DNA of 64,000 bases from IMG/VR virus record IMGVR_UViG_3300036713_000599. The stretch is one strand, 5' to 3'. The DNA comes from a virus. Taxonomy: Duplodnaviria > Caudoviricetes. The notes beneath the pieces were generated by a model. That model saw nothing but the letters and a program-made list of their open reading frames with translations, searched no databases and had not been told where the DNA came from. Shown here piece by piece: positions 1 to 19,360 of the stretch. A program made the position numbers and the translations under genes. The number at the start of each line of letters is the position of its first letter. The first letter of the stretch is position 1.

Positions 1-147
1 GACTTGAAACGAGAATTCAGCCGATACTTCACTTTCTCTTCCAAGGTTCCTGGTGGGGTTAGTGGACGACTAGTGAATCTTGTTGCTCAGAGGCAGGGTG
101 GCGACTTGAAGGTCACGATCGAGTGGCAAGAGCGCTGGGGACTATAA
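1..147 (+). CDS. 3' end of an upstream hypothetical protein (partial, 48 aa visible)
   Basis: Frame 1 is open from base 1 (DLKREFSRYFTFSSKVPGG...VTIEWQERWGL) to TAA at 145-147, directly before the RBS of the next gene. Confidence 0.6.
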   Translation, partial: DLKREFSRYFTFSSKVPGGVSGRLVNLVAQRQGGDLKVTIEWQERWGL

Positions 148-158
148 GAAGGTGAACG

Positions 159-1049
159 ATGTCGGTAGCGTTTTATAAAGGTCAGCAACTGGGGTGTGAG
201 GATCTGAACATCTTCCTAGAGGACACTGCGGGGGTGCCTACGAACGCAGCTGAAATTCACTATGCTTTATACGACTTCACTACGGGACAGGAAGTTCTCT
301 TGGGTGCTCCCAGAAGGACTCCTTCTAGCTCTTCGGTGGGTGCTTACTACGCGAGTGTGATTGTTCCTCTCGACGCCAATATCGGTAGCTATAGGGTGAG
401 GTGGACTTTCAGAGAGAAGGTAGGCGGTCCTGTTCATCAGGTAGTGCAGGAATTCGAGGTTATTGACAAAGCTACGAACCTGGTTAGCCAGTTCTCTTCG
501 TGTGAGGACGATATGATTCGGAGGCTCCGGATTCTCCTTCGAGATAATTCCCCGGATCGAAATTATCATTTCAGGCCCCCCGCTCACGAAACCACCATTG
601 GGCAGTTCAACCAGGTGTTTGGGTACATCTGGGAAGACGAGGAATTACAGGAATACCTACTTCGGGGTCTGGACATGATTGCCGCAGCACCTCCGAGGAC
701 CCCCTTCACGAGCTGTGACCAGCTCGTTCGATGTTACCCCGAATGGCGCACTCTTTTACTCAATGGGGCGTCCATGCATGCCCTATTTGCTTTGATGGTG
801 AACTGGATTTCGGACGAGTTCAGTTATAGTGTGGGCGGAGTTTCTCTGGACATCGAAAAGTCCAGCAAGTACGAATCGGCCTACCAGGCTATGCGGGATC
901 AGTTCGATACGCAATTAGAGCGAGCCAAGCAAACAGTGAAGACAATTCGCGGCCTTCAGCAGCCTCGCTATGGTGTAGGTATCCGTAGTGCTTTTGGTCC
1001 GTATACCGGCCGGGGTACCCTAAGTCCTCGAAAATTCGTAGGATTCTGA
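159..1049 (+). CDS. Head-tail adaptor / neck protein with N-terminal Ig-like beta domain
   Basis: 296 aa with RBS GAAGGTG. The C-terminal half (DMIRRLRILLRD...WEDEELQEYL...FSYSVGGVSLDIEKSSKY) has the helical adaptor pattern with an S-x-G-G-V-S hairpin. It is first in a neck-gene series. The call is from motif memory and synteny. Confidence 0.6.
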   Translation: MSVAFYKGQQLGCEDLNIFLEDTAGVPTNAAEIHYALYDFTTGQEVLLGAPRRTPSSSSVGAYYASVIVPLDANIGSYRVRWTFREKVGGPVHQVVQEFEVIDKATNLVSQFSSCEDDMIRRLRILLRDNSPDRNYHFRPPAHETTIGQFNQVFGYIWEDEELQEYLLRGLDMIAAAPPRTPFTSCDQLVRCYPEWRTLLLNGASMHALFALMVNWISDEFSYSVGGVSLDIEKSSKYESAYQAMRDQFDTQLERAKQTVKTIRGLQQPRYGVGIRSAFGPYTGRGTLSPRKFVGF

Positions 1050-1092
1050 TATTCCAGACTTTCGTGACTTTCTGCTAGCATGGAGATAAAAG

Positions 1093-1374
1093 ATGAAAGA
1101 TGAAAACCAAAACACAGATAAGTCGGTTCCTCAAGAAACGCCCGTTTCCCGAGAGGACCTAGATCAACTCGAACATCTTCAACGAGTTCGCGTCCAACTT
1201 TCACAAGAGGGCGTGGATATAGACTTGAGGAAAGTCGAGATTCTTGCGACGGTTCGTCGGTTGGACCAGCAGAGGGATGAGATATTCCGAAAAATCTTGG
1301 AGGACAGAGGTTTTCCCCAAGGGACAGTGATTGAGATCAATCCAAAGGACGGGTCCTTTAAGGTGTCTTCTTAG
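1093..1374 (+). CDS. Small coiled-coil hypothetical protein
   Basis: 93 aa with GGAG upstream. A heptad-like helix is followed by a short beta tail (GTVIEINPKDGSFKV). It fills the gap between the neck genes. Confidence 0.65.
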   Translation: MKDENQNTDKSVPQETPVSREDLDQLEHLQRVRVQLSQEGVDIDLRKVEILATVRRLDQQRDEIFRKILEDRGFPQGTVIEINPKDGSFKVSS

Positions 1375-1410
1375 CAACTCTCTTTATGGATCGATCTATG
1401 AGGAGACACT

Positions 1411-2769
1411 ATGCCGTACGCCTCAGATCGTGACAGACGCCCTCATTGGGATGAGATTGAGCAGTCTCCGTGGCCTGCCCCTCCACGGAATATGTTTCTG
1501 ACGAGTGGCTTTGATGCGGGGGTGTTTGACTTGGTGTGGGACGACCCTGCAAGTTTAGCCCTCAACTCTCGTTTTCACATTTGTGGCGTGAACATTTACC
1601 GTTCGTTCGACTCTGAGTTTGGTCCCTATGATCGCGTAACCAACCTCCCTATCGGGGCAATGTATTGGCGGGATCGTACGGATAACGTGCTTGTAGAGAA
1701 CGAGATGGTTGAGGATAATCATTGGATCCTCAGGGGAGTCCAGACAGCCGGTTCTAATCAGGTACGGTATGTGTTGTGCACACAGCGTCGCCCTATCGTT
1801 AAGTCGGGCTCCCAGGCAATTCCTGCTGATGCGCCTACGGATGTTATCGTTACGGTTGACGGGCAGCGAGCGACGGTTCTGAGGGTGGACGGTCCTTCAG
1901 GTGAAATTGAGTTGGATCCTGCTTGGTACCCCAATGTTGACACACAGACGCTTGAGCCAGCGATTGTGCCTGGGGACAGCTCTGAGACTCGCGTCACGTA
2001 TCTGTACAATCGACGTCTACTGAGGACTGATTTAGACCAACGAATCTTCTACCGTATCACCACAGTAGGTGTTCCAACTACCAAGCCTATCGAAATAGCC
2101 CAACCTCAAGATCTTAGGGAGACCCCTCTAGAGTGGGCGGCGTTTACGTCAAACAAGGAAATCGAGAAGATTGACTATATTTGGCGTGAGGCCGTTCGCC
2201 GTAACGCTTGGATCCTCCGTCAGGGTGGAGAACGCGTCCAAGTCTTCATGCGGAAGAGGAACGGCCTTCCTTGCGAGTGTACAGAGAGGCCTAGACATAA
2301 GCAGCCTCAGAATGATTGCAGAAAATGTTACGGTGTCGGTTTTGTTGGCGGCTACGAAGGCCCCTTCCCCCTCATAATCTCTCCTGATGATGCTGAGCGT
2401 CGGATTGCTCAGCGGGACATTGGTCGCACGGTTGAGCACGTCTACGAGGTTTGGACGGGACCGAGCCCTCTTCTTAGCCAAAGAGACTTCCTGGTGAAGA
2501 TCAACGGAGAGAGGTACAGCATTGGGGCCGTGAGGATGCCGACCAATAGGGGAATGGTGCTTCAGCAGCATTTCAATATCGGCCACATTGACGAGTGTGA
2601 TGTGCGCTACCATGTGCCGATGGATAGCCCCACTGGTCATGTTGTGACCCAGTTGACCCCCTCCGCCCCACCAGGAGGCGAGCCTGCTCAGGTGACGGAT
2701 AAGCCTAATATCCCTAATGAGAGACAACTTCGCGGTCGCACAAAAACATGGGAGAATATTTCGTACTAA
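1411..2769 (+). CDS. Head-closure / neck (stopper-like) protein with Fn3-like N-terminus and Cys4 motif
   Basis: 452 aa with RBS GAGGAG. The segment WREAVRRNAWILRQGGERVQVF..R..G..CEC...CRKCYGVGFVGGY resembles large-myophage neck proteins. It also contains an inserted beta module (RPIV...DVIVTVDG...VDGPSGEIEL). Confidence 0.6.
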   Translation: MPYASDRDRRPHWDEIEQSPWPAPPRNMFLTSGFDAGVFDLVWDDPASLALNSRFHICGVNIYRSFDSEFGPYDRVTNLPIGAMYWRDRTDNVLVENEMVEDNHWILRGVQTAGSNQVRYVLCTQRRPIVKSGSQAIPADAPTDVIVTVDGQRATVLRVDGPSGEIELDPAWYPNVDTQTLEPAIVPGDSSETRVTYLYNRRLLRTDLDQRIFYRITTVGVPTTKPIEIAQPQDLRETPLEWAAFTSNKEIEKIDYIWREAVRRNAWILRQGGERVQVFMRKRNGLPCECTERPRHKQPQNDCRKCYGVGFVGGYEGPFPLIISPDDAERRIAQRDIGRTVEHVYEVWTGPSPLLSQRDFLVKINGERYSIGAVRMPTNRGMVLQQHFNIGHIDECDVRYHVPMDSPTGHVVTQLTPSAPPGGEPAQVTDKPNIPNERQLRGRTKTWENISY

Positions 2770-3272
2770 TGCCTCCCAAGACTTTTGTAGCTCGCATTAA
2801 TTATAAGCCCCTTGCCTTGGACGAGGTTGAGAGACTCAAGCCTGAGCGGGTCTTGAAGTATATTCAAAGGGAGGTGCTTAGGGCTATCAGGTCGAGAATC
2901 CAGGTAGCGGCCTTTTCAGCGGAGGCGAAAAAAGCTCTGAGCCAAGGCATGCGGACGAAAATCGGTCCGAGAAGTTTGACAATTGAAGCCACTCATCCAG
3001 CTTTTTTCCCTCTTATTAGGGGTCAGGCTCGTGGGCAGATGACGTGGTTGAGAGGTGCGCGGGCTCCAATCCCTATTGTCCGAGATGACGGTAAAGTAAT
3101 CTTTCGGACTGCAACTGCGAAGTCGATGAAGGACGGGAAATGGATTCATCCGGGGCACAAGTCGACAACGATTATCGAGGAGGCCCGGAAAGAGGCTCGC
3201 GAGATTGTCAAGAAACGCATGAAGAAAGAGATTCAGCGGCAGATCAGAGCAGCTATAGGAAAATCTAGATGA
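2769..3272 (+). CDS. Basic neck/tail-completion protein (HK97 gp10-like position)
   Basis: The start is better placed at ATG 2769 (TAATG overlap) than at 2748, giving 167 aa. The protein is K/R-rich and ends in the WIHPG motif plus a helix, as is typical of this class. Confidence 0.5.
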   Translation: MPPKTFVARINYKPLALDEVERLKPERVLKYIQREVLRAIRSRIQVAAFSAEAKKALSQGMRTKIGPRSLTIEATHPAFFPLIRGQARGQMTWLRGARAPIPIVRDDGKVIFRTATAKSMKDGKWIHPGHKSTTIIEEARKEAREIVKKRMKKEIQRQIRAAIGKSR

Positions 3273-3910
3273 GTAATAAGCAAGGTTCTTACACGGTTGT
3301 GGGTATGGTGACAGGCACCCACTTGGTCGAAGACATCAACGTCACGGTCCCTCATCAGGTCGCAGTGGATATTTCGGCAGACGATGCGCACCGCTCACGT
3401 GATTTATGGATTGGGATCGACCAGAAGCGCCTGTTTTTGTTGAAGGGCCATTCCCGGACTGCTAGAGCGGTACCGCAAACCCCAGCCCCTTCGTTGCCTA
3501 CAGGCACCAAGGAGAGTGACAACCTCAGGGTTGAATTAGATACAACTAGGAAGGAATTGGCCGTTGTCCAGAAGAAGTTGGATACTGCCCTATCCGAACT
3601 TGCGGTGGCTCAAGACCGAAACACTTCTCTTCAGGAAACCCGTGCGTCTCTTCAAGAGGACCACGCAAAGAAGCTAGAGACTATTGTGACAATGTTGTCC
3701 AGGTTGGAGACGGGCCAGGTGAACGTGGTTGAGGGTGTTCAAGAGGCCCTGCAGGCAGTGGAAGCACCGGTTTTCATTCCTGGGAAGATTCAGCCGGTGG
3801 GGGCTGAGGCGAACATTCAGCCCAAGGAAGGCGACGTTCTTAAAAAATCTTCGGTCAAGGGTGCTGCCTCCACTCTTCGGGCTCTGCGCAAAGGTAAAGG
3901 TAAGAAGTAA
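3269..3910 (+). CDS. Coiled-coil protein, candidate partner of the actin-like ATPase
   Basis: 213 aa with an ATGA overlap. It has a small N-terminal domain, a ~65-aa heptad region (LRVELDTTRKELAVVQKKLDTALSEL...), a PVFIP motif and a basic amphipathic C-terminal helix (VKGAASTLRALRKGKGKK). Confidence 0.7.
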   Translation: MSNKQGSYTVVGMVTGTHLVEDINVTVPHQVAVDISADDAHRSRDLWIGIDQKRLFLLKGHSRTARAVPQTPAPSLPTGTKESDNLRVELDTTRKELAVVQKKLDTALSELAVAQDRNTSLQETRASLQEDHAKKLETIVTMLSRLETGQVNVVEGVQEALQAVEAPVFIPGKIQPVGAEANIQPKEGDVLKKSSVKGAASTLRALRKGKGKK

Positions 3911-3933
3911 TCCATTGATTCAAGAGGCGTGTT

Positions 3934-4548
3934 ATGAGTAAAGACTCGGTCTGGCGTGACCCAATGTACTACAACCCTATGCGGGACGGGCCTCCTTACC
4001 TCCCGGTCACGGAGTCTCAGAGACACGAGATTCGTGAGTATATCAACAAGAGTGCTGCTTACTATGACGTCCCGAAGCCGAAAAGTCCGTATGATGTTCT
4101 ATCGAAGCTTCTGGTTGGTCTTAGATTCACTGCTATGGTCCACCAAACAGCGCATTGGCAAGCGAAAGGAAATTCCTTCTACGGAGACCATTTGTTATTC
4201 CAACGCCTATATGAAGAGAGCCAAGAGGGAATCGACGGCGTTGCAGAAAGACTGATTGGTTTGACAGGTGACGTTTCTAAGGTCTCCTTGTGTGACCAAA
4301 TTCGTGACATGCACACTATCGCCAAGGTGTGGCATGGGCACTGTGGGGACGACCTGGCTGCCGTTTCCTTGAGAGGCGAGATGGCATTGATCAAACTCAT
4401 CGCTTTTTTCAAAAAGTCTCTTCAAGACGAAGGGTCTTTGACGGAAGGGCTTGACGACCTTTTACAGGGGATCGCTAGCAAGCACGAAGAGTTCGTTTAC
4501 TTGTTGAAGCAGCGCAGCAGCAGGCCAGTCTACAACTATGGTCGGTAG
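3934..4548 (+). CDS. Dps/ferritin-like four-helix protein with ~50-aa N-terminal extension
   Basis: The segment HQTAHWQAKG.SFYGDHLLFQRLYEE....IDGVAERL is the Dps-type H-W...H-x-x-F...D-x-x-A-E-R signature. Confidence 0.8.
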   Translation: MSKDSVWRDPMYYNPMRDGPPYLPVTESQRHEIREYINKSAAYYDVPKPKSPYDVLSKLLVGLRFTAMVHQTAHWQAKGNSFYGDHLLFQRLYEESQEGIDGVAERLIGLTGDVSKVSLCDQIRDMHTIAKVWHGHCGDDLAAVSLRGEMALIKLIAFFKKSLQDEGSLTEGLDDLLQGIASKHEEFVYLLKQRSSRPVYNYGR

Positions 4549-4595
4549 AGTCCGTAGTTAGACTCAGACCCAGATTCAAATTAGACGAGGATGAG

Positions 4596-5636
4596 ATGAG
4601 TAGCAAGAAAAAAGAGCCTGAGCAGGCTTATAGGCCTGGCGTCGGTCTTGATATCGGCACCATGAACATCGTATCCGCTCGTCGGGAGACGGGCGACGAG
4701 ACGCGTGTTAAGAGGGTCCGGGACGCGTTTCTCGATCTTGACATGACCGCTAAGCGCAGTCTCAAGATGAGTCGTGTGGACTACATCGAGAAGGATGACC
4801 GGCTTATCGTCATCGGAGACAGCGTCCTGACAATGGCGAACCTTTTTAAGCGGGAGGCCCGTCGCCCTTTAAGCAAAGGCGTTATTTCGGCGGGTGAGAT
4901 CGACGCTCAAGAAATTCTCAGCATTCTCACACATTTCGTCCTGGAAGATCCTGTGCAACCAGGGGAACATTGTTTTTACTCGGTCCCCTCTTCTCCGATC
5001 AACGACCAGAGTCAGGACATTCTTTACCATACGGAGGTTTTCCGACGTATTGTGGAGGAGCATGGCTACACGGCCCACCCGACGAATGAAGCTATGGCAA
5101 TCATCTACAGTCAGGCAGCTGAGGATATGTTTAGTGGGCTGGCTGTGAGCTTCGGTGCGGGTATGTGCAACGTCGCTTTGAGTTACCAAGCAACACAAGC
5201 CATGGATTTCTCGGTGAGCGACGGCGGGGGTGGGGATTGGATAGACGCTCAATCCGCTCGGGCTGTGGGTAGAACAGCTGCCCAGATGTGCGCTATTAAG
5301 GAGAAGGGCTTGGATCTATCTAAGCCGAAGAATCGTGAGCAGGAAGCCATTGTCTTGTACACGAAAGCCCTCATCGACCATTGTTTGAAGAATATTGCAG
5401 CCCAGTTCGAGAAGAGGCGTGGAGAGGTCGAGCTGTTGGAGCCCATTCCCTTCATCGTTTCGGGGGGTACCTCCAAGGCACACGGGTTTATGGATGTGTT
5501 CAAGCAGCAGTTTGCCAAGATTCAGAAAGCGGGCTTCCCAATCGACATTTCGGATGTTCGACCGGCGGTCAATCCTCTAACGGCTGTCGCAGAAGGACTT
5601 CTCGTGTTAGCCTCCGAGGAGCACGAGGAAGAATAA
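4596..5636 (+). CDS. Actin-fold ATPase (MreB/MamK/ParM superfamily; volactin-like)
   Basis: 346 aa. Motifs seen: phosphate-1 GLDIGTMN, connect-1 NEAMA, phosphate-2 SFGAGMCN, GGGDWID, adenosine VSGGTS, connect-2 PLTAVAEG. RBS GAGG. Confidence 0.9.
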   Translation: MSSKKKEPEQAYRPGVGLDIGTMNIVSARRETGDETRVKRVRDAFLDLDMTAKRSLKMSRVDYIEKDDRLIVIGDSVLTMANLFKREARRPLSKGVISAGEIDAQEILSILTHFVLEDPVQPGEHCFYSVPSSPINDQSQDILYHTEVFRRIVEEHGYTAHPTNEAMAIIYSQAAEDMFSGLAVSFGAGMCNVALSYQATQAMDFSVSDGGGGDWIDAQSARAVGRTAAQMCAIKEKGLDLSKPKNREQEAIVLYTKALIDHCLKNIAAQFEKRRGEVELLEPIPFIVSGGTSKAHGFMDVFKQQFAKIQKAGFPIDISDVRPAVNPLTAVAEGLLVLASEEHEEE

Positions 5637-5637
5637 C

Positions 5638-6810
5638 GTGTTTTATTATCTGATCGGGGCCCTCAAAAATCGCCTCATTTTGGAGCTACAGGATAGTTTT
5701 AGTAAACATCCTGTTTTCCGTAAGATAAGTCCTTACATACAGAATAAGTTTTCGTTTGAAAAACGGCCTCAGTTTGGGATCGTGGTCAAAGGGTCCAATG
5801 CCAACAAGATTCAACTGTCGGCGGACAATTACGTGGGCACTATCAGCAGCCATGTCATGTTGGCGTACGTAGGGGCCCCTGTACACCCTCTGGAGTGGGT
5901 CCGTGAGGATCTTAGAGCTGTTCAAGAGAACGGTATGCAGACACTCCCTGGCGTGTACTTTGTCGAGATCTTGTCGGCTCCTACGAATGCGGGTGAGTTG
6001 GGCTACTTTGCGATTGATCCTTTACTCACTCAGTCGGACGAAGCTGTTCTACAATTTCAGAGTGGTGTTGAGAGGGAGGCACAGCTCCAGCAAATACCTG
6101 TTCGGGAGACGCTCCGTTTGTGGCTTGATCGGAAGTTTCCTCTCATAGAGGGTCGTGACTACTCCGTGGATTATGGCAGTGGGGCCATTGCCTTTTTAGG
6201 TACCTTTGCGGCTAATTCGGTCGTGACGGCGGATTATAGGTACGCGGCTAGTTCGATCGGCCCTGTGCCTTACAGGTGGAACTCAGCGGATCATACAACC
6301 CTTCCGGGGGTTGTGATGGCTTTCGGGAAGCGGTCTGAGGCGGGCCAGAAGGTGGCTGTGGTTGTTTACGGTGACCGCGTTAGTGTAGCCCAGGCATATG
6401 GCGGTAAGTTTGAGGCGAGCTTCGATCTAGATGTCATAGCTCGCGACTCTTACCAGATGGAAGAGATCGCGGACCTGCTCATCATGTACCTTTGGGGTGA
6501 AAAACGGTCCAAGTTGGCCTTTGAGGGTATCGAGATAGTGGATGTCTCTATGGGTGGTGAGTCGGAGGAGATCTATGACGAGACCGCGGACGACTCGTAT
6601 TACCAGGCATCTATGTCTGTGCAATTACAGGCGGACTGGGAGATCCATATCCCGATACCATTGACTCTGTCTAGAGTTACGCCTGTGACTGCTGAGGGCG
6701 ACGAGGACCCGACAGCCCTTTCTGGGATCCATCAGGTGGTGGATGACTTGTTTTTTGCGACACATGCTGTTTTGATTGACCGAAACAGTGACTACGAAAA
6801 GATTACCTAG
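5638..6810 (+). CDS. Tail terminator / tail-completion protein with inserted beta domain
   Basis: GTG start, 390 aa. The C-terminal segment (ASFDLDVIARDSYQMEEIADLLIMYLW...YYQASMSVQLQADW) fits the gpU/gp15-like terminator fold. It lies just before the sheath gene. Confidence 0.6.
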   Translation: MFYYLIGALKNRLILELQDSFSKHPVFRKISPYIQNKFSFEKRPQFGIVVKGSNANKIQLSADNYVGTISSHVMLAYVGAPVHPLEWVREDLRAVQENGMQTLPGVYFVEILSAPTNAGELGYFAIDPLLTQSDEAVLQFQSGVEREAQLQQIPVRETLRLWLDRKFPLIEGRDYSVDYGSGAIAFLGTFAANSVVTADYRYAASSIGPVPYRWNSADHTTLPGVVMAFGKRSEAGQKVAVVVYGDRVSVAQAYGGKFEASFDLDVIARDSYQMEEIADLLIMYLWGEKRSKLAFEGIEIVDVSMGGESEEIYDETADDSYYQASMSVQLQADWEIHIPIPLTLSRVTPVTAEGDEDPTALSGIHQVVDDLFFATHAVLIDRNSDYEKIT

Positions 6811-6835
6811 ATTTGGATGAAGATAAGGATAAGCG

Positions 6836-7249
6836 ATGCCCCAATACACTTTCGACTGTAGGTGTGGTTTACAGTTTACTCGCACTCTCAAGGCAGAGAA
6901 TCACGAATCCTGTGTCTGTCCTGACTGTGGTGAGGACGCCCCTCGCCAGTTAATTGGGCAAAGTTTTGGTTTCGGCTTCTCTCCAGGAAGTACTCCCGGC
7001 AATAGTGGGGTCACGAAACATGACTCCCCTACGGCTGATCAGGTGGTAGGACGCTCGGCCGAAGTCAGGTGGAGGGAATACGAGGAACGAGAGACGGTCA
7101 AAGACAAAGTCCGTGAAATTGGAGGTACCCGAGCTCTCCGCCGTAGAACTTACAGGGATGCTATTGAGTACGAGGAAGGTGGGGATGCTATTGAGAGACG
7201 AAAGAAAATTGTGAACAGAATACGTCAGTTTGAGCGGTCAGATGACTGA
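6836..7249 (+). CDS. FmdB-family zinc-ribbon protein
   Basis: The N-terminus MPQYTFDCRCG..F........CVCPDCG...PRQL is the FmdB (CxxC-CxxC) pattern. Confidence 0.8.
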   Translation: MPQYTFDCRCGLQFTRTLKAENHESCVCPDCGEDAPRQLIGQSFGFGFSPGSTPGNSGVTKHDSPTADQVVGRSAEVRWREYEERETVKDKVREIGGTRALRRRTYRDAIEYEEGGDAIERRKKIVNRIRQFERSDD

Positions 7250-7375
7250 TGTGTTGATAATGCTTTCGTTCGCAGGGTGAGGGTAGAGGCTGAGCCTCAA
7301 GATAAAAAACCAGACCCAAATCCAAAGCCCTATAACCAAATCTAAAAAGAAGAACACTTCGTGAAGGAGGCCACC

Positions 7376-10300
7376 GTGGCTCTTGGACCGTTCACCACAT
7401 ACGTTCCCCCTGGGGTTTATACCCGCACCCTTACTGAAGCCAATGCTGCCAACTTGGTTGCAGGGCTAAGGATTCCTGTCATCATTGGCGTGGGCCAGGA
7501 AGAGCTGGAGCAACCGGACCTAGAGTTAGTTCGGGGCTCCTCTGCGACCTTGGATCAACAGATCGTCAGTGAGGATGTTTCACAGCGATTTGTGGTCGAT
7601 GAGACGAACCCTAGTAGTCCGGTTCTCGGAGCGGTTGACGGTACCGTTTCCAAGTTCCGTGTACGCAACTTTCCCGTTGTCACCGGTGAGGGGCTCGGAC
7701 GCGCAGCCAACAGCCCTCGTCACGTTAGCGTGACCGTGGACGGCAATCAAGTGGCCGTCGGGAGCGTCCAAGGTACTGACGGGTATGTTACCCTTCAGGT
7801 CCCTCCCCAAGCAGGCGCGGATGTCCGCTGTACGTACTTTTTCCACCGAAGTGACACTGCTTTCATCGACGATGTTTCTAGCCAGGTAACGACGGAACAG
7901 GCTGTTCTGACTGCTCCAGCTACGGCTACGTACACTGTCACTCTTGGCACTACAGATTCCTTCAAGTTTACCATTGATGGTGGCTTTGAGACGACAATTG
8001 TTTTTACGGCAGGATCCTACACCGCTGCAGGCATCAAGGCTCTTGTTGACGCTGCAAGCGTCACTGGCTTGTCTACGTCTGTCTACACGGATGAACGGGG
8101 CGGAGAACATGTCCGGTTTACCGCGGCACAGAGTATCGTTATTGGGGACGGCGGCGCTAACGGGGTCCTAGGTTTTGCGGCAGGAACGCAGACGACCCGT
8201 AACGCCGCGTTCCGGGTCTTCCAGCGTCCGATTGTGGACGGCACAGACGGAGGCATCACCACTACGGACACGTCCAAGGTTGTGGTCCTCGTCAATGGTT
8301 CTCAGGTTATTCCTGCAGAAGTGGACGGAACCAACGGACTCGTTACCCTTTCTCAGCCGCCTGCAAGTGGGTCCACGGTGTCGATCCAATACTGGGCGAA
8401 CACCTGGCAGGACACGTTTGACTACTTGCCAAATACGCTGGTTACCGATGTGATCCGGTGCGGCTTCTCAGCGGGCCGTAACGATTACATCGAGGAGCAG
8501 GACTTTGTTATCTCGAACCCAAGTGCAGATGTTTCGATCATCCATTGGGGTGCGAGCTATGTTGTCGCTTCAACGAGCCGCACAGCAGGGTCCACAGTCT
8601 TTGACGACACTCAGATTATCCCGACACTTGTGGATGATAAGCTGTATAATGCTGAATGTGCTCGGGTGTCCGACACCACAGTAGTTCCTGCAACACAGAG
8701 CCCCAACCAGTTCCTCCTCCCTGAGGTCCCGACTCTGGGTAACGGTCGCGACACCCCTCTGGGCTCGTCTGTGTACAATGCGGTCAGTAATAGCCGTATT
8801 GGCCTAAACACCAATCGACCTGACCTCATTACTGTTTATACCGGTCGTGACCTCCGAGACGCTCTTGGGCGTAACCCTGTGACCGTAACGCAAGTTGACG
8901 CTGTGACCCGCACTATCACTCTGAAGGACGCGGTTCCGCCGGATCACAATGCTTACGCGACCTTCTGGTATTCCCGGCTTTCTGATGACACCTACGTTTT
9001 CACTAATAAGGTGGCTGGTGCTGTCAATGTCGGTCAGTACGAGGTGTATTCTACCTCGACAGCATCAAACCTGTACCACTGCCAGTTTGGGACCAAGACC
9101 GGTCTACCAGAGACGGTGCAGTGGCCACGAGGTGTGGAGAATATCCCTGACGCGTTCCACACAGGTGCTGGCACTCCTGTGGCTGAGATTGTCACAGTCA
9201 CCTTCTCGTCAGAGGGTGCTAAGAATGCTGTGTACACGAATGAGGGTGCGGCTCCGTACAGTATGTTTGCCGGCGCTTCGGACTTCTGGCGTTCAACCCT
9301 CAATGGTTCGTCCTATGTGACAGACCTCGATACTGCTGTTCTAGGGTACCTGGCCGGTAGTCGCGTTTCTGTGAGTGCTCTTGATCAAATCACAATCACC
9401 ACAGGTACGAATGATGAGTTTAATGTCACGGTGGACGGAACGGACACAGACGTCACCCTCCCCGCTGGTGACTTGACTCCTGCTCAGATCGTAAGTGCCG
9501 TCAACATCGCCGCTGGTGGTGCTGTGGCTTCGACAGGAACTCTTACCCTCACGGGTCAGCCTCTCGACACGGAGACTGTTGAGATTGGTGGTAAAACGTA
9601 CACCTTCCAGACGGTTTTAACTGATGTTGACGGAAACGTCTTGATCGGAGCGACTGCAAGTGACTCCCTCGATAACTTGATCGCAGCGATCAACCTCGAT
9701 GCGGGTGCTGGGACTCTGTACGCCACTTCGATGACCCTGCACCCAACTGTTACGGCGGCGGCTGGCGCGGGCGACACGATGGATGTTACCGCGAAGGCGG
9801 CAGGTGTAGCTGGTGACAGCATCACGACCACACAAACTCTCACTAACGGCACTTGGGGTGGAGCAACCCTTTCCGGCGGTGTTGATGGGACTACGGTCGC
9901 AGCCTACTACCAAATTGGTGGCTCAGGCGGTGACGTTTTCTTCGTTCTTCAGAGCGCTTCGACCCCGGCCGCACTTCCGGCCGGCTTCGACCATGCGTCG
10001 GAAGTCTCGATTCGCCAGGGCACGGCGGAATCAACCCTCGGCTTCTCCGCTTTCCAAAGTGCGAGCGGTACTCCGACTGCTACCACAAAGCCTGCAACCC
10101 TTCTCGGTACTGAGGCAGGCCCCTTTGTTATCACAGCTGGTGTGGACGACCAATTGGATATCAGGGTGGACGGTGTTGACTACCAGATTACACTAACAGC
10201 TGGTGCTGCAGTCGCATCCTCCACAATTGTGAGTGATATCAACACAGTGGTTGCAGGTGTAGCTTCTGTCGGCACTTTGGCCAACCTTGACCAGGTTCGT

Positions 10301-11983
10301 CTCACGTCCACAACCTTTGACGCGGGTTCGAGTGTGGAGATTCTTTCTTCCTCCACTGCCCTGACGGTCCTTGGGTTCACCTCAGGTGACAGGGCAAGTT
10401 GGGCCCAAGTGACGGCACAAGAGGTTGTTAATGGCCTCATGGCTACCGCAAGTTTTACCAGTGACGCTGTTGCGTACGTGAGTCAGATCGAAGGTCAGGA
10501 CTACATTACTATTGAGTCTCTGGCTACTGGCGCTACGACGTCCAGCATTGTCTTCGCTGCAGGCACCACAAGTGCCTTCATCGATGGTGCGGGGACTGGT
10601 ATCGTACCTGGGACGAGCGGGGACAACGGTGAGAACGCTCGCGACATCTTTACCGTATCTTCCTCGAATGCAAGCGGTTCAGCAGGTACCGGTGCTCCGG
10701 GGCAGACGTACACAGACGACGTTACGGGCCTTCGGTTCACTGTCTTGGAGTCGGCCACCGGTAGTTATACGGCAACCGGTAGCTTCACCATGACAGTGTC
10801 GCCCACTTTTAAGGTCAATCCAGCCATCCCGTGGCTTTCGATCGGCGGCCTTGAGGTTGTGGTTACTGACACTGTGGGTGTGGGTGTGGACGACACTGCG
10901 ACTGTCCAGACATTCGATCCGAGCGGCCTTGAGCCAGCGATAGGTGATTTCTACTACATTACCTATAACTTCATGAAGCAAGATTATTCGACGAGACTGT
11001 ATCAGCAGTTCAAGACTGTCGAAGCAAACTTCGGCCCTCTTTCGGCTGAGAATAGAGTCACTCTTGCGTCCTACCTGGCGATTCAAAATGGCGCAGTCCT
11101 CGTAGGTATCAAGCAAGTCTTGAAGGTGGCCAACACCAACCAGGCGTCGGCTCAGAGTTTCAATGCTGCCATCTCTGATCTGGCAACACCTCTGCCTGGC
11201 AATATCCGGCCTAATGTCCTACTTCCTCTGTCGACCGACACTTCGGTATATAGCTTCCTGATGCAACACTGCGAAACGCAGTCAAATATCCGGAACCAGT
11301 CAGAGCGTACAGGCATTATCGGATTCGCGTCGGGTACTTCTCCCACTAATGCTCAGACTATCGCCAAGAGCCTGCTAAGCAATCGTATCTCGGCTGTCTA
11401 CCCTGACTCGGCTGTCGTCACCCTGACTAATGAGTTGGGTGAGAACTTCGAGGTCCTGGTGGACGGTACCTTCCTCGCAGCTGCGGTGGGCGGTGCTGTG
11501 GTCAGCCCTGCGGTGGACGTAGCGACGCCCTGGACACGTAGGCTGGTACAGGGCTTCACGAGACTGCCTCGCATTCTTGACCCCATTGCGTCCAACCAAA
11601 CGGCGGTGGCAGGCATCACCCTCTTGGAGGACCTCGATCCGATCATTCGTATTCGACAAGGTCTCACAACCGATATGTCGAACGTCCTGACCCGGTTACC
11701 CACGGTTACGCAAATCGCTGACTACGTGCAGCAGCAGAGCCGTACGGTTCTTGACTCCTTCGTTGGGACCAAGTTCTTAAGCAGCAGGACTAACGAGGTG
11801 GAAGTCTCGATGACTGCATTGTTTAGGCAGCTTGTCCAGGCGGAGATTGTCGGAGCCTTCACGGGAATTGCGGGAGAAGTTAGCGTGGATGATCCAACTG
11901 TGATGAGGGTGGAGTCATACTATCAGCCGATATTCCCCCTTCTCTATATTCTCCTGACTTTCAACTTGAGGGCTAGGATCTAG
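7376..11983 (+). CDS. Contractile tail sheath protein, very large (~1535 aa)
   Basis: The GTG start at 7376 follows AAGGAGG (the track start of 7361 includes the RBS). The N-terminus is YVPPGVYT...PVIIG. The C-terminal sheath core reads DGTFLAAAVGG...TPWTRR...QIADYVQQQSRTVLDSFVG...YQPIFPLLYILLTF. Confidence 0.9.
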   Translation: MALGPFTTYVPPGVYTRTLTEANAANLVAGLRIPVIIGVGQEELEQPDLELVRGSSATLDQQIVSEDVSQRFVVDETNPSSPVLGAVDGTVSKFRVRNFPVVTGEGLGRAANSPRHVSVTVDGNQVAVGSVQGTDGYVTLQVPPQAGADVRCTYFFHRSDTAFIDDVSSQVTTEQAVLTAPATATYTVTLGTTDSFKFTIDGGFETTIVFTAGSYTAAGIKALVDAASVTGLSTSVYTDERGGEHVRFTAAQSIVIGDGGANGVLGFAAGTQTTRNAAFRVFQRPIVDGTDGGITTTDTSKVVVLVNGSQVIPAEVDGTNGLVTLSQPPASGSTVSIQYWANTWQDTFDYLPNTLVTDVIRCGFSAGRNDYIEEQDFVISNPSADVSIIHWGASYVVASTSRTAGSTVFDDTQIIPTLVDDKLYNAECARVSDTTVVPATQSPNQFLLPEVPTLGNGRDTPLGSSVYNAVSNSRIGLNTNRPDLITVYTGRDLRDALGRNPVTVTQVDAVTRTITLKDAVPPDHNAYATFWYSRLSDDTYVFTNKVAGAVNVGQYEVYSTSTASNLYHCQFGTKTGLPETVQWPRGVENIPDAFHTGAGTPVAEIVTVTFSSEGAKNAVYTNEGAAPYSMFAGASDFWRSTLNGSSYVTDLDTAVLGYLAGSRVSVSALDQITITTGTNDEFNVTVDGTDTDVTLPAGDLTPAQIVSAVNIAAGGAVASTGTLTLTGQPLDTETVEIGGKTYTFQTVLTDVDGNVLIGATASDSLDNLIAAINLDAGAGTLYATSMTLHPTVTAAAGAGDTMDVTAKAAGVAGDSITTTQTLTNGTWGGATLSGGVDGTTVAAYYQIGGSGGDVFFVLQSASTPAALPAGFDHASEVSIRQGTAESTLGFSAFQSASGTPTATTKPATLLGTEAGPFVITAGVDDQLDIRVDGVDYQITLTAGAAVASSTIVSDINTVVAGVASVGTLANLDQVRLTSTTFDAGSSVEILSSSTALTVLGFTSGDRASWAQVTAQEVVNGLMATASFTSDAVAYVSQIEGQDYITIESLATGATTSSIVFAAGTTSAFIDGAGTGIVPGTSGDNGENARDIFTVSSSNASGSAGTGAPGQTYTDDVTGLRFTVLESATGSYTATGSFTMTVSPTFKVNPAIPWLSIGGLEVVVTDTVGVGVDDTATVQTFDPSGLEPAIGDFYYITYNFMKQDYSTRLYQQFKTVEANFGPLSAENRVTLASYLAIQNGAVLVGIKQVLKVANTNQASAQSFNAAISDLATPLPGNIRPNVLLPLSTDTSVYSFLMQHCETQSNIRNQSERTGIIGFASGTSPTNAQTIAKSLLSNRISAVYPDSAVVTLTNELGENFEVLVDGTFLAAAVGGAVVSPAVDVATPWTRRLVQGFTRLPRILDPIASNQTAVAGITLLEDLDPIIRIRQGLTTDMSNVLTRLPTVTQIADYVQQQSRTVLDSFVGTKFLSSRTNEVEVSMTALFRQLVQAEIVGAFTGIAGEVSVDDPTVMRVESYYQPIFPLLYILLTFNLRARI

Positions 11984-13135: not shown

Positions 13136-16100
13136 ATGGATGCAATGCAAGAACTCCTAAAGGTTGTTGAGGATTTCAAGCGGCACATTGGCGGTGCGGC
13201 GGAGGACGGTAAGGCTGAGCCTCTGGAAGCCTACCTGGCGTCGGAGTATCTGATCTTCGTCCAAGCCTTCGATGTGTACTCACGGCACCTAGAGGACACC
13301 ATTCGGTTCAAGATCGAGACGTTGGTAGCTCGTCGGGAGGCTTTGACCGATCCTGCTGTGATTGCGGACATTGACAGGCAACTCACCCAGCTTGAGGCCC
13401 ACCAGGAGAATCCTGTGGATAAGGTTGTCCAGGCGGGTGTTCGGCTAATGAAGCGTCTTGACTCAGAGATGGCTGAATTTACCAATTTCATGCGTGAGAA
13501 TTTACCTGAGCAATTCCATAATAAGTTGGATCGGACGATGCGTAAGCCGGCCCGTGACCCACAGGGCGTGGCCTTGCGTGCACGTGGCCTTCGCGGTGTA
13601 GTGATGCGTGGCGGGCCTAAGACTCTCAAGGGCCTTTTTGGCAGTAAGATCAAGCTTCGTAACCAGAACCAGGAAGCTCTTGCCGCTGTCCAGATGGATG
13701 ATGGTGATGAAGCTCTCAAGAAACTCGCCGCTATCCCTGTGAAACACGCCCTCATTCGCAAGTGGATCAGTTGGGCGGATGAGACAGCAAAGCCTTTAAA
13801 AGCAGAAGAGTTTTTTCCTGAATTTGTGTCACCTACGGAGATAGGTGCATCTGAGGTGTCGGATAGGGCTACGACTCTCGTGTCCCAACAGTCGAGACAG
13901 CTTGGTGCTACGGATCCGGAGGAGGTCCAAGAAGCCAAGGTGGCTAGGGATGAGACGATCGTGGCGGTGGAGCAAGAGGCCACTGCTAAGGCTCAGGAGG
14001 CCCTGGAAAAGGCTGGAGAGCCAGACGAACCCCCTAAGAAGTCCGAGGTGGTTGGAATCGCGACAGCGGCAGCCCTCACGGCCATAACGGATCTGTCCAA
14101 CCCACAGAACGTTCCCAATACTCTCAAGGGACTCGACGACGAGCAAAGGGCGGCAGCCCTCACGGACGGTAAGGTGCTCGTCGCTGCGGCAGCCGGTTCT
14201 GGTAAGACTCGGACGGCTGTTGCACGTATTTCTCATCTTGTGTTGGATAGAGGTGTTCCACCTACAAAAATTCTGGCCGCCACTTTCAACAAGAAGGCGG
14301 GGAAGGAACTTTCTCAGCGTCTTGTTCCTACATTGGGTCAAGATGTCGTCAAACAGATGGAGGCGGCGGGTAAGTTAGGCACACTTCATTCCACCTTCCG
14401 TCGAGTTATCAAAGAGCACGGTAACTTTGACGAGCAGATGGCTATCTCGAAGGCAGCCTTTCAGGGAGGCGGAGACAAGATTGGTCGGTGGGTCAACAAG
14501 GTGTGGGGAGCGTGCTACGGTCCTGAAAATATCCCTAAGCTTTCGGACATGATGCGATACAAGACTCAGTGGGCGGGCAACGATATCTCCCCTGAACAAG
14601 CTTTGGCCGAGGCTGAGAACAAGGAAGAGTCTCAGGCTGCTCTATGGTACGGATGGTACGAGAACTTCAAAAAGGCCAACCCTGGTGAGTGGGCCCCTCC
14701 TTGTGAGGGGAAACAACAGGAAGCCAATCAGCAGGAGGCTCGTGAGAGACGCCAAAGGCGTCGTCGTCCTACCCAATGGGAGACATTCCTTAACAACGTC
14801 CGGACCGTGCAATACAAGGGTCGGCCTAAGACAGTTCGTGTTGGGGACTTTGACGACATGCTTTCGATGGCTCGGGACATCCTTCGTCGGAACCCCGAAG
14901 CGAGAAAGCAGATTCAATCGGGGCTTGACCATGTAATTGTTGATGAGGGCCAAGACCAAAATACTGTTCAGCACGAAGTCATTGGTTACATGACGGAGCA
15001 TGTGGCTAGTGATGGTAGCGACGGTCGGTCCTTGTGGGTTGTAGGCGATGAATCGCAGTCGATTTATTCGTTCCGAGGGGCACGTCCTGACCAATTTGTA
15101 GGGCTTCACGAGAACGAAGAATTCACAACTCGGGCGATCAAAACCAACTACCGATGTGAGCCTGAAATCGTTGGGGCTGCGAACAAACTCATCGAGAACA
15201 ATGAGGACCGGCTCCCGATAGCTGCGAACGCTAACCCTGCGAGGCAGGCGGGCAACGCATCCATTAAGGTTTCGACTCCGGAGGACGAAGCGTCCGCCGC
15301 CATCTCCGTGATTGACAGGGTCAAGTCCCTCGTGGATCGTCCTGATGGTGATGAGTTCAACGACCACGCGGTTTTGACCCGCACCAATGCTGAGCTGAAT
15401 GCCTATGAAACGGCCTGTATTATAGGCAATGTGCCTTACCAGCGGAAGGGCGGGGGAGGATTCTTAGAATCCCCTGAGACGAAGGCTGTTTTAGGTTACG
15501 TCGATTTGGTCATGGGCAGTGATCATGAGAAGATGCAGGAGTCCTTCGCTAGCGTCATTGATCGACCCCAGAGGTTCTTTAGGGGTACCGACGGCCCTGA
15601 ACTGGTCAAGGGTGTGTTCCGTGAGTACGCTCGCCGTATTGGCGAGGATGTAGGTTCGATTAGCCCAATGGTGGCGTTGAACGATTCGACGTTCGTTCGT
15701 ATGTTGTCGGAAGCTCTCTCTAAGAGTTCAAGGGCAGTCGGGCACGGTATCAGTAAGATTGAGGACCTTCGCGACTCTCTCATGGATATGCAGGCACATG
15801 CGGATGAGGGAGGTAGCGTCGAAGATCTCTTCGACGATATCCTTGACCTCAAGGGTCGCGTTCCTGTCGTTGACGAGAAGACGGGACGCTCTCAGTTCAA
15901 AGAGGTGTCTCTTCGGGAAAGCATTCAAGGGTTTACTCGGGACAACACTTCTGAGGATGATGAGGGTGGCGAAGGTGATGCGGACGATAGCATGGTGGGG
16001 CTTGGAAATGTTTCGTTCCTCTTCTTGTTGACTGAGCCTGACCCAACAGATCCGGCTGATATTGCACAGAGCCCTAAAACACCTGCTGGGTTCAAGGCTA

Positions 16101-16645
16101 AGATGGCTCGATACGAGGAGCGTGCGAAGAGTCTTCGTGTGCCTACAGAGGAGGAGCGTGCTGCTGCTCTCAAGCAAGGCAAGGTTCTTCCTGAGGCACC
16201 TACCAATTTCATGTCCCTGAATACGGTACACGCCACGAAGGGGTTGGAATGGAAGAACGTATATGTTTCGATGCCGGGCTCTAAGTTTCCCATGCCTCTT
16301 TTTACGAAGGAAAATGAGCCTCCTCCCCCTGTTGAGAAGGAGCAGAAGCAACTTGAGTCCGAGAGGCGTCTTGGTTATGTAGCCATCACGAGGGCTGAGA
16401 AGAATCTTACCATCTTGTGCCCTAAGGTGGTAGGTGGTAGGCCTTCCGGTGTTAGTCGGTTTGTGGAGGAGGCAGGGTTGGAGGTAGGAGAGAACGTCAA
16501 CCCACCTGGTGAGGCAGGCGACGCTGCAGCTGAGGTGGAGAAGTCGACTACTCGAACAGCTTCCGTTGAGTGGTATGATGAGGAAACTGAAGACGACATT
16601 GTGATGACGGCTTCTGAGTGGAGTAAGGACGTGTGCAATGGCTAG
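13136..16645 (+). CDS. uvrD: UvrD/Rep/PcrA-family SF1 DNA helicase with ~330-aa N-terminal extension
   Basis: All SF1A motifs are present in order: LDDEQ, AAAGSGKT, TFNKKA, GTLHS, DFDDML, IVDEGQD, VGDESQSIYSFRGA, NYRC, LTRTN, TVHATKGLEW, ERRLGYVAITRA. Confidence 0.95.
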   Translation: MDAMQELLKVVEDFKRHIGGAAEDGKAEPLEAYLASEYLIFVQAFDVYSRHLEDTIRFKIETLVARREALTDPAVIADIDRQLTQLEAHQENPVDKVVQAGVRLMKRLDSEMAEFTNFMRENLPEQFHNKLDRTMRKPARDPQGVALRARGLRGVVMRGGPKTLKGLFGSKIKLRNQNQEALAAVQMDDGDEALKKLAAIPVKHALIRKWISWADETAKPLKAEEFFPEFVSPTEIGASEVSDRATTLVSQQSRQLGATDPEEVQEAKVARDETIVAVEQEATAKAQEALEKAGEPDEPPKKSEVVGIATAAALTAITDLSNPQNVPNTLKGLDDEQRAAALTDGKVLVAAAAGSGKTRTAVARISHLVLDRGVPPTKILAATFNKKAGKELSQRLVPTLGQDVVKQMEAAGKLGTLHSTFRRVIKEHGNFDEQMAISKAAFQGGGDKIGRWVNKVWGACYGPENIPKLSDMMRYKTQWAGNDISPEQALAEAENKEESQAALWYGWYENFKKANPGEWAPPCEGKQQEANQQEARERRQRRRRPTQWETFLNNVRTVQYKGRPKTVRVGDFDDMLSMARDILRRNPEARKQIQSGLDHVIVDEGQDQNTVQHEVIGYMTEHVASDGSDGRSLWVVGDESQSIYSFRGARPDQFVGLHENEEFTTRAIKTNYRCEPEIVGAANKLIENNEDRLPIAANANPARQAGNASIKVSTPEDEASAAISVIDRVKSLVDRPDGDEFNDHAVLTRTNAELNAYETACIIGNVPYQRKGGGGFLESPETKAVLGYVDLVMGSDHEKMQESFASVIDRPQRFFRGTDGPELVKGVFREYARRIGEDVGSISPMVALNDSTFVRMLSEALSKSSRAVGHGISKIEDLRDSLMDMQAHADEGGSVEDLFDDILDLKGRVPVVDEKTGRSQFKEVSLRESIQGFTRDNTSEDDEGGEGDADDSMVGLGNVSFLFLLTEPDPTDPADIAQSPKTPAGFKAKMARYEERAKSLRVPTEEERAAALKQGKVLPEAPTNFMSLNTVHATKGLEWKNVYVSMPGSKFPMPLFTKENEPPPPVEKEQKQLESERRLGYVAITRAEKNLTILCPKVVGGRPSGVSRFVEEAGLEVGENVNPPGEAGDAAAEVEKSTTRTASVEWYDEETEDDIVMTASEWSKDVCNG

Positions 16646-17600
16646 TCGGTACGTTGAGATCTCCAAGGCGGAGATGGAGAAGTTCATCAAGAACTCTTAT
16701 CGACCTTACCGTCCAAAGCCTGGCAGGGTCGGGGACATGCTGACGTACACACTTCAGCTCAGTCCCAACGTAGGCATTCGTATTCACACCTCCCTATCCG
16801 TTGGAAGGACTGAGGTTCGCGGTGTAGGGGACGACGCCATAGAGGTGTTCCTTGTGAGTTTGAAGCTCAAGGGTAGACAGGAATACCTCATGACAAGGTC
16901 CACGCAAAAGAAGCACGGGGTTGTGCTTGTGATGCGGACCAAGAACTGGCGATCGGCCCTCGATGATCGAGTGGACAAGCTAATTGACATTTATGAGGAC
17001 AACGAGGAGTATTGGGACAAGCGAGCCCAGGGAACCTCGGAGCAGGCGATCGGCCCCTCTCCGAAGCAGCTTGACTACATGAAGAAGCTTGTGGGCCTCG
17101 TTTTCCAGAGGGACTTGCAGGATAAGGTTCGTTGGTCAGAGTTTGGGCTTGACGGTAAAGTAGAGTCGATGGACTTCTCGAAGCTCGAACCTGGCAGGGG
17201 AGGATCGGCTTCGCGGTTTATTGATCATGTTCGATCTGTATTGGACACAGAAGAGGCTGAGGCCGAAAAGGATCGGGCTCAGAATGACCAGAAGTCTGAG
17301 GAGGAGTCTAGCGGGGGACCAACGGATGCCCAAGTCCAGAGACTTGGCTATCACCTTCGCGGCAAGGAGTGGCTTTGGCGTAAACATAACCTCGATCGGT
17401 TTGGCCCTGTTCCTAGGGGGCCTGAAGACTTCCGCCAGAGGTTCACGCGAGAGCAGGCGGCAGATATTATCAAGATCCTAGACGATTCTCTTAGTGCATG
17501 GCAGCGGAGTAGGCAGCGTTCTGCTTCTGAGGAGCTTGTTGGGTGGGGTAACATCACAGAGGATGAAGCGGAAACTCTCTACGGCCCTGTCGCTGGATAA
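16638..17600 (+). CDS. Hypothetical protein with N-terminal alpha/beta domain and two short P-S/T-x-x-Q helical repeats
   Basis: 320 aa, overlapping the helicase stop by 8 nt. It contains R..G.DAI.V...RTKNWR..L and the repeats GPSPKQLDYMKKL and GPTDAQVQRL. Confidence 0.7.
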   Translation: MASRYVEISKAEMEKFIKNSYRPYRPKPGRVGDMLTYTLQLSPNVGIRIHTSLSVGRTEVRGVGDDAIEVFLVSLKLKGRQEYLMTRSTQKKHGVVLVMRTKNWRSALDDRVDKLIDIYEDNEEYWDKRAQGTSEQAIGPSPKQLDYMKKLVGLVFQRDLQDKVRWSEFGLDGKVESMDFSKLEPGRGGSASRFIDHVRSVLDTEEAEAEKDRAQNDQKSEEESSGGPTDAQVQRLGYHLRGKEWLWRKHNLDRFGPVPRGPEDFRQRFTREQAADIIKILDDSLSAWQRSRQRSASEELVGWGNITEDEAETLYGPVAG

Positions 17601-17617
17601 CCGGTGTATTCTCCCAC

Positions 17618-18424: not shown

Positions 18425-18467
18425 AGATTCAATTTTCAATATAGTTTTCGTTGTCGCCCCAAGATGA

Positions 18468-19316: not shown

Positions 19317-19360
19317 TGGTGCAACACCGGACAGAGCCAGACCCACAGGAGACTAGATAA

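Follow-up and report, generated by a model that had tools for sequence, protein, structure and literature searches.

Phage cytoskeletons are known from two cases, the tubulin PhuZ and actins of the ParM/Alp type that act in DNA replication or partition. The PhuZ spindle of nucleus-forming jumbo phages, a cytoskeletal polymer of phages above 200 kb (>200 kb), positions structures and delivers capsids. AlpC, the actin-like protein of the Corynebacterium prophage CGP3, is co-transcribed with an upstream filament-binding adaptor, AlpA; this system is induced early, AlpA binds phage DNA at the promoter of the operon, and the pair supports replication. In ParMRC systems, docking of the C-terminal helix of the adaptor ParR on ParM is established. 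In cells, the filament of the magnetosome actin MamK positions large cargo, and in living cells of Haloferax volcanii, volactin (VolA, HVO_2015), a cell-shape factor, polymerises and depolymerises as a dynamic filament (PMC10869688). The volactin family has been characterised experimentally so far only in a haloarchaeon. Here, we analyse a volactin-type actin gene and the gene of its candidate partner in a 64-kb stretch of DNA (64,000 nucleotides, called the window throughout) of a tailed phage (Duplodnaviria; Caudoviricetes), comprising bases 136097-200096 of the linear, 240,951-bp IMG/VR virus record IMGVR_UViG_3300036713_000599, whose completeness CheckV puts at ~50%. Our preferred reading, to which we assign a probability of about one half, is that the two genes specify a late-expressed volactin-type filament and a dedicated phage partner that organise virion assembly. 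The features at its centre are the following (positions in the window; lengths in amino acids, aa):

4596..5636, plus strand: volactin-family actin-fold NTPase, 346 aa (Pfam PF25216 and AlphaFold2 (AF2) model)
5148..5171, plus strand: phosphate-2 loop of the actin, S185-F-G-A-G-M-C-N192, a family signature in place of DxGGGT(E/D)
3269..3910, plus strand: phage-specific partner candidate, 213 aa (AF2 model, alignments and conserved position)
3767..3781, plus strand: short linear motif P167-V-F-I-P171 in a predicted disordered segment of the partner
3857..3895, plus strand: C-terminal basic amphipathic helix of the partner, residues 197-209 (...STLRALRKGK...), predicted

The translated actin gene carries GLDIGTMNIVSA, RDAFL, IVIGDSVLTMANLFKREARRPLSKGVI, ILYH, NEAMAIIYS, FSGLAVSFGAGMCNV, GGDWID, SGGTS and PLTAVAEG, and thus all the motifs from which an earlier note on this DNA had recognised an actin fold and had preferred the volactin family over MreB, ParM and FtsA. 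The family assignment holds in profile searches as well as in a tree. Volactin PF25216 is the only Pfam match (E=2.2e-68; 231.5 bits against a cut-off of 35) and spans positions 3-321 of the 321 in the profile, with no MreB, ParM, FtsA or Hsp70 family of Pfam at E<=0.1; among 14 control genomes, the same model exceeded its cut-off in one, that of Haloferax volcanii. In NCBIfam and PHROGs no model matches the protein, and phmmer with the actin as a single query returned nothing from the PDB at E<=1. A profile built from 60 family members (28-83% identity) did reach PDB sequences, namely MamK (3.6e-15), BeeR (1e-10), MreB (1e-6) and FtsA (2e-6), with Hsp70 and sugar kinases absent up to E=10. 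The protein therefore does not cluster with the non-polymerising actin-fold enzymes that the earlier note had named among the outcomes that would refute its reading.

The AF2 model of the actin, made with the 60-sequence alignment, has a predicted local distance difference test score (pLDDT) of 94.6 and a predicted template-modelling score (pTM) of 0.92. Foldseek ranked the MamK double-helical filament first, and in VIA-align MamK was likewise the top match (Z 27.9; root-mean-square deviation 3.0, 294 residues aligned), followed by BeeR (26.4), MreB/Mbl (~25), actins (~24.5) and DnaK (24.4). Taken together, the fold says actin superfamily, and it is the sequence profile that places the protein nearest to filament formers. 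MamK (PDB 5LJV, 5JYG) is both the closest solved structure and the closest PDB sequence family; it differs in its canonical phosphate-2 motif, DIGAGTTD, in its unrelated genetic context and in sequence (17-20% identity). ParM is structurally farther away than either MamK or MreB.

The tree comprised 181 rows (177 family members and four MreB), and the branch between family and MreB has a support of 100 in the Shimodaira-Hasegawa-like approximate likelihood ratio test (SH-aLRT). The window's phage clade (support 100) lies within a weakly supported group (86) with other phage-type sequences, separate from an archaeal clade (99) and a Planctomycetota clade (84). In this tree, the phage actin is placed as a family member of a distinct phage subfamily and is not nested in the haloarchaeal volactins, to which it is 39-41% identical. 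With H. volcanii volactin it has in common the Pfam family, the five actin-fold motifs and SFGAGMxN, at ~40% identity to the haloarchaeal members; whereas volactin is chromosomal and has no known partner, the phage protein belongs to its own subfamily and is encoded in a block of virion genes together with a partner found only in phages.

The phosphate-2 loop reads SFGAG where D-x-G might be looked for, as the earlier note had reported; the reading is correct, but its standing as an oddity is lost, since by alignment SFGAG is a signature of the whole volactin family, haloarchaeal members included, and no defect. The family pattern S-[FYWM]-G-[ASG]-G-M-x-N is matched by the window protein (SFGAGMCN), and homologues from Halorubrum and Halobacteriales have SFGAGMTN where the MreB proteins of the same genome set have DIGGGTTE/D. 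Across the 60 sequences, G187 and G189 of the loop are invariant, together with D19 (phosphate-1), G21/T22, D217, K235/E236 and G290/G291; S185, N192 and E165 (the NEA of connect-1) are nearly so. The family has thus exchanged the phosphate-2 Asp for Ser, and the residue seven positions on, acidic in MreB and MamK, for Asn; this second position we take to be the site of actin His161.

The same hairpin is a repeated target of inteins. Inteins with LAGLIDADG or HNH endonucleases, or mini-inteins, break the homologous genes at no fewer than five (>=5) distinct points, either after S185, G187, M190 or N192/193 in the phosphate-2 hairpin or between R and GGDW, a region that corresponds to 5148-5240 of the window (homologues P0123, P0124, P0126, P0127, P0135, P0139, P0151, P0155, P0175, P0180, P0189, P0192 and others). 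Inteins typically occupy conserved, indispensable sites, and we read the phosphate-2 and GGDW sites accordingly as indispensable. At 5217-5228 (residues 208-211), the window actin has FSVSDGGGGDWID where close relatives have FS(L/V)ARGGDW(I/V)D: the Arg that most relatives share has given way to another residue and the protein is two residues longer, the change coinciding exactly with one of the intein points. This difference may be the scar of an intein loss.

Judged from its codons, the actin is under purifying selection. Compared with an orthologue of 83% identity, its nonsynonymous divergence (dN) is 0.10 with synonymous sites saturated, which is why dN/dS is not properly computable; its constraint resembles that of the neighbouring structural genes and is stronger than that of the partner (dN 0.25).

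The long open reading frames (ORFs) of the window lie on the plus strand throughout. Farther upstream, the same strand of the record encodes the portal (phrog_16240, 3e-27), the head maturation protease (1e-10), the major head protein (phrog_2522, 1.5e-50) and several tail fibres. The location of the actin block inside a virion-morphogenesis region is thus solid, and the record is a fragment of a huge tailed phage. Between the genes, a scan for sigma-70 promoters and terminators showed no excess, but its sites were fewer than in shuffled controls, so that it is uninformative on transcription units. Of the earlier placement of the actin gene between neck and tail-terminator genes on one strand, the strand and the virion-gene region stand, while the labels neck and terminator found no confirmation by hidden Markov models (HMMs). 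Contigs bearing close relatives of the actin measure 280-620 kb, and one such genome is complete (437,331 bp, direct terminal repeats) with a single volactin gene. In each of five viral records with the actin, the complete 437-kb genome included, the volactin gene is single-copy and no tubulin was matched.

As a clade marker independent of the actin we used the 452-aa neck-like protein encoded upstream of the partner, which has relatives on 264 IMG/VR contigs; the best 80 were examined, and 76 had enough downstream sequence. An actin gene (47-83% identity) followed by the terminator-like gene is present in 74 of these 76 loci. The actin is thus almost always present, as a single-copy gene, in a large clade of uncultured huge phages with genomes of ~0.35-0.6 Mb.

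The second protein of the pair, which the earlier note had described as a coiled-coil protein of 213 aa ending in PVFIP and a basic amphipathic helix, was recovered with both elements, the first as APVFIPGK (residues 166-173) and the second in the tail STLRALRKGKGKK. AF2 predicts a beta-rich N-domain (residues 7-58, pLDDT >90), a long helix (81-147), a disordered segment (164-195, pLDDT <50) and the terminal helix. The family evolves fast; word-indexed searches gave four to nine proteins and tblastn often misses it, so it was traced by position and motif. Conservation is concentrated at the end of the protein, the most conserved columns (P167, F169, P171, V196, L203, R204) all falling within the C-terminal 50 residues. 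Across lineages P171 and L203 are invariant and P167, F169 and R204 are conserved to at least 90%, in a protein that is otherwise 17-36% identical. Both the architecture and this C-terminal module persist even across lineages whose actins are just 47-50% identical. An acidic tail of the actin, EEHEEE, was considered as a phage-specific dock for the basic helix; the idea is weak, since a short acidic tail is present at the end of cellular members as well.

The layout resembles that of ParMRC, in that a small oligomeric adaptor would dock with its C-terminal helix on an actin-like filament, and that of AlpA and AlpC, in that the adaptor gene precedes the actin gene. Of the ParR analogy drawn earlier, it is this architecture that survives, with no DNA-binding fold recognisable in the N-domain and no centromere-like repeats. 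The partner N-domain (7-58) has no match at E<=0.001 in the PDB or BFVD, and a ParR-like ribbon-helix-helix (RHH) fold for it is unsupported, with neither RHH nor helix-turn-helix (HTH) matches in these two databases. No DNA-binding match was obtained for the partner in Pfam, NCBIfam or PHROG, and positions 1-7400 of the window contain only two-copy matches of 12-14 nt at chance level and no inverted repeats. Lacking a known N-domain fold and centromere-like repeats, the pair is unlikely to be a DNA system of the ParMRC or AlpAC type; it also differs from ParMRC in not being on a plasmid and from AlpAC in its position in a structural block.

The earlier note had asked whether homologues of the actin gene keep the coiled-coil gene beside them, and for the phage homologues the answer is positive. 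A strict pattern of the module (PxF[IL]P plus a basic helix) is found in at least 62 of the 76 intervals between neck-like and actin genes, compared with none of the 3526 other ORF segments of those loci. Most of the remaining loci have variants of the module, for example PAFIP...ALKKKR, PHVYF...LLKKLRGKE or PVFIS. In a separate set of 76 cellular loci, the module was found beside none of the volactin genes.

Two phages are without the actin. In one (L182), an unrelated 276-aa gene occupies the place of the actin, and the partner is reduced to a 147-aa N-domain without helix, motif and basic tail; in the other (L190), the stretch from the 203-aa gene to the terminator-like gene contains neither actin nor partner gene. 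Both genes are retained in 20 more relatives of the two phages. This co-loss on two contigs is the best available evidence that the C-terminal module of the partner would exist for the actin.

From these data we propose the following mechanism for a late filament and its partner in virion assembly. The actin most likely polymerises in the infected cell in a nucleotide-dependent manner, and its expression is probably late, by transcription together with the neck and tail genes. It would act together with the phage-specific 213-aa protein, whose N-domain may hold a cargo or anchor, most plausibly a part of the virion, and whose long helix may oligomerise. Contact with the actin would be made by the disordered PxF[IL]P segment and the basic helix at the C-terminus, much as the ParR helix engages ParM or the FtsZ C-terminal peptide engages FtsA. 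In this way, the pair could give virion assembly its spatial order, for instance by placing or moving heads, tails or the sites of assembly; the positioning or transport of heads and tails we infer from gene position. A wider claim, which we put forward tentatively, is that a clade of phages with genomes of 0.35-0.6 Mb builds its own actin cytoskeleton, a volactin filament tied to virion parts by a new kind of adaptor (PxF[IL]P plus basic helix) that organises head-tail assembly in space. It would be the actin counterpart of the PhuZ spindle, with which it shares a function by analogy only, PhuZ being a tubulin of nucleus-forming jumbo phages, and the first case of a cytoskeleton encoded in a morphogenesis operon of a phage.

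Several points weigh against a filament-partner pair in virion assembly. Filament formation, binding, expression timing, cargo and purpose are all things we infer. In the structural comparison of the model, fold alone cannot part filament formers from Hsp70, the margin between DnaK (Z 24.4) and MamK (27.9) being small. The Ser and Asn replacements in the phosphate-2 loop mean that hydrolysis may be slow or may take another route. The co-loss rests on two metagenomic contigs, still only two, and, as the gene module is generally conserved as a whole, the joint presence of partner and actin is a confounded signal. The partner may instead be a neck, collar or assembly protein of the ordinary kind, and the identities of the neighbours as neck, terminator and sheath are weakly supported.

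Of the other explanations, the one that survives best, though we consider it unlikely, is a non-polymerising ATPase, a chaperone or assembly factor for the neck, the terminator or a giant sheath, comparable to the closterovirus Hsp70 homologue in virion tail assembly, with the 213-aa protein as co-factor or substrate adaptor. The tight position of the actin gene, 1 nt from the terminator-like gene and kept there in 74 of 76 loci, would suit such a factor, as would a family without the phosphate-2 Asp and a fold that is also DnaK-like (Z 24.4). The sequence signal to Hsp70 is nil, however, whereas MamK, BeeR, MreB and FtsA are matched; the protein is a bare 346-aa actin core without a substrate-binding domain, and the characterised member of the family makes dynamic filaments.

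We give little credit to an actin that is carried in the virion or ejected from it, with or without the partner, and acts early, for example in placing the incoming genome. Huge phages package many non-structural proteins, and the gene is located among virion genes; this position fits late cytoplasmic expression equally well, and the protein has no packaging signal. Quite improbable, too, is interference with the host, in which filament or partner would target FtsA, MreB or the divisome of the host and thereby either stop cell division or make room for very large virions by enlarging the cell. The module motif PxF[IL]P is similar to D-I-P-x-F-L-R, the core of the C-terminal peptide of FtsZ, a likeness of motif only, and H. 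volcanii volactin affects cell shape. Yet the motif lies ~35 residues from the C-terminus, while the FtsZ peptide is at the protein end, and the strict coupling of the module to the phage actin argues that the actin is its target. Lastly, a type II (ParMRC- or AlpAC-like) partition of the genome or positioning of replicating phage DNA has in its favour the parR-parM and alpA-alpC layout of an actin with a small upstream partner ending in a helix, and one cellular family member with a weak ParB-HTH fusion, but is very improbable given that no repeat array or centromere-like site is nearby, that the partner N-domain has no RHH or HTH fold match and that the gene lies in a late structural block, whereas alpAC is early-induced.

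Returning to the filament with its dedicated partner, the system departs from the known phage cytoskeletons in four respects: it belongs to the volactin family, it is near-universal in a clade of huge phages, it stands inside the head-tail joining genes and it comes with a phage-only partner. In the searchable literature, a 2026 review of jumbo-phage biology included, huge, jumbo or mega-phages are nowhere reported to encode volactin or another actin. The findings point to a phage-built actin cytoskeleton that is so far undescribed. If the filament-adaptor pair is real, the organisation of virion assembly by a phage cytoskeleton would reach beyond Chimalliviridae. The short C-terminal module of the partner is a concrete candidate interaction site, and the actin-partner pair would be open to in vitro study without phage culture.

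The gene order is the same in all phage loci examined, with proteins of 296 aa, (93 aa), 452 aa and 174 aa, the partner, (Dps), the actin, the 390-aa protein, the zinc ribbon and a protein of at least 1400 aa. In the window, the genes flanking the pair are:

159..1049, plus strand: head-tail-connector-like protein, 296 aa (phrog_17327, E=1.3e-4, a weak match; syntenic)
1411..2769, plus strand: neck-like protein, 452 aa (ESM-Atlas structure rows T4_neck-protein, Phage_attach and Minor_capsid_1)
2748..3272, plus strand: conserved protein, 174 aa, between the neck-like and partner genes and syntenic in all phage loci examined
3934..4548, plus strand: Dps/ferritin-like protein, 204 aa (phrog_3636, 7e-12)
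5638..6810, plus strand: tail-terminator-like protein, 390 aa (Atlas feature score 0.87 to SP10_terminator, a lead only)
6836..7249, plus strand: FmdB-type zinc-ribbon protein, 137 aa (TIGR02605, 2.1e-8, over cut-off; Pfam Zn_ribbon_8, 7e-6)
7361..11983, plus strand: tail-sheath-like protein, 1540 aa (Atlas feature scores 0.87-0.90 to sheath families, a lead only)

The 452-aa neck-like protein has an invariant CxC...CxxC cluster. For the 174-aa protein there is no family match in Pfam, PHROGs or NCBIfam. The 204-aa protein has further matches below cut-off (Pfam Ferritin 4.6e-4, NCBIfam Dps 6e-6); its gene stands between partner and actin in 59 of the 76 clade-A loci and is absent from a second phage lineage. 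The Dps gene is thus an optional insert outside the conserved pair, and in lineages without it the partner gene abuts or overlaps the start of the actin gene. The 390-aa gene starts 1 nt past the actin stop codon and is syntenic in 74 of 76 loci. For the names of the 390-aa and 1540-aa proteins, Pfam on eight orthologues, a PDB profile search and phmmer returned nothing, and neither did the Phage_sheath_1C and SP10_terminator models over three whole records; SP10_terminator matched no control genome either. In every lineage, the zinc-ribbon gene keeps its place between the terminator-like gene and the sheath-like gene.

The interval between partner and actin also receives other DNA. Mobile-looking insertions are present there in L191, L193-L195 and L209, one of them a small ORF ending ...RGYRVLRFWESDL..., by eye an endonuclease of the Vsr/DUF559 type. 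In L146 (10924-14417), one of the two exceptions among the 76 loci, the partner gene is followed by a block of ~3.5 kb with several unrelated genes, and the available sequence stops short of where the actin would be expected.

Beyond the clade, volactin homologues are rare in phages and widespread in cells. Of 50,697 GenBank phage records, only two contain a homologue, both of them uncultured huge phages, and no cultured phage in this set has one. The homologue of LR745208.1 (485 kb) is 50% identical and has the same synteny. That of LR756511.1, a 595-kb uncultured phage, is 28% identical, stands in a wholly different gene context and was probably acquired independently. A scan of one genome per prokaryotic species, run with a 10-sequence alignment, gave volactin relatives in 514 genomes; the best 80 of these are mostly Planctomycetota chromosomes (37-43% identity), plus Halobacteria, Thermoplasmata, Desulfobacterales, Omnitrophota and others. 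This changes the view of the family, which is mainly bacterial, its best matches being dominated by Planctomycetota. In Planctomycetota, the volactin gene has conserved housekeeping surroundings (NDK, NFACT, aminotransferase, ABC1 kinase); a protein encoded upstream of it is likewise conserved and has no Pfam match. A cellular contig (L210, 4860-8676) encodes two tandem volactin paralogues, the second of which (P0163, 891 aa) has a weak N-terminal ParB-HTH match, and a family member of 1160 aa (P0177) is fused to Wzz and ParA/BY-kinase-like domains.

As to the record itself, the window DNA is present in three sediment DNA runs, possibly the source sample, with no RNA run listed. A patatin-like phospholipase (PF01734, 1e-27; record 130464-131321) is encoded amid the tail-fibre genes that precede the neck block. 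Outside the window, a 774-aa protein (record 17187-19511, minus strand) contains a Cas12f1-like TNB domain (PF07282, 2.7e-9, over cut-off), which suggests, by this domain, a Biggiephage-like phage. Just downstream of the sheath-like gene, in a non-tail block, the window encodes a UvrD/PcrA-type helicase of 1169 aa (13136-16645) with an N-terminal extension of ~330 aa.

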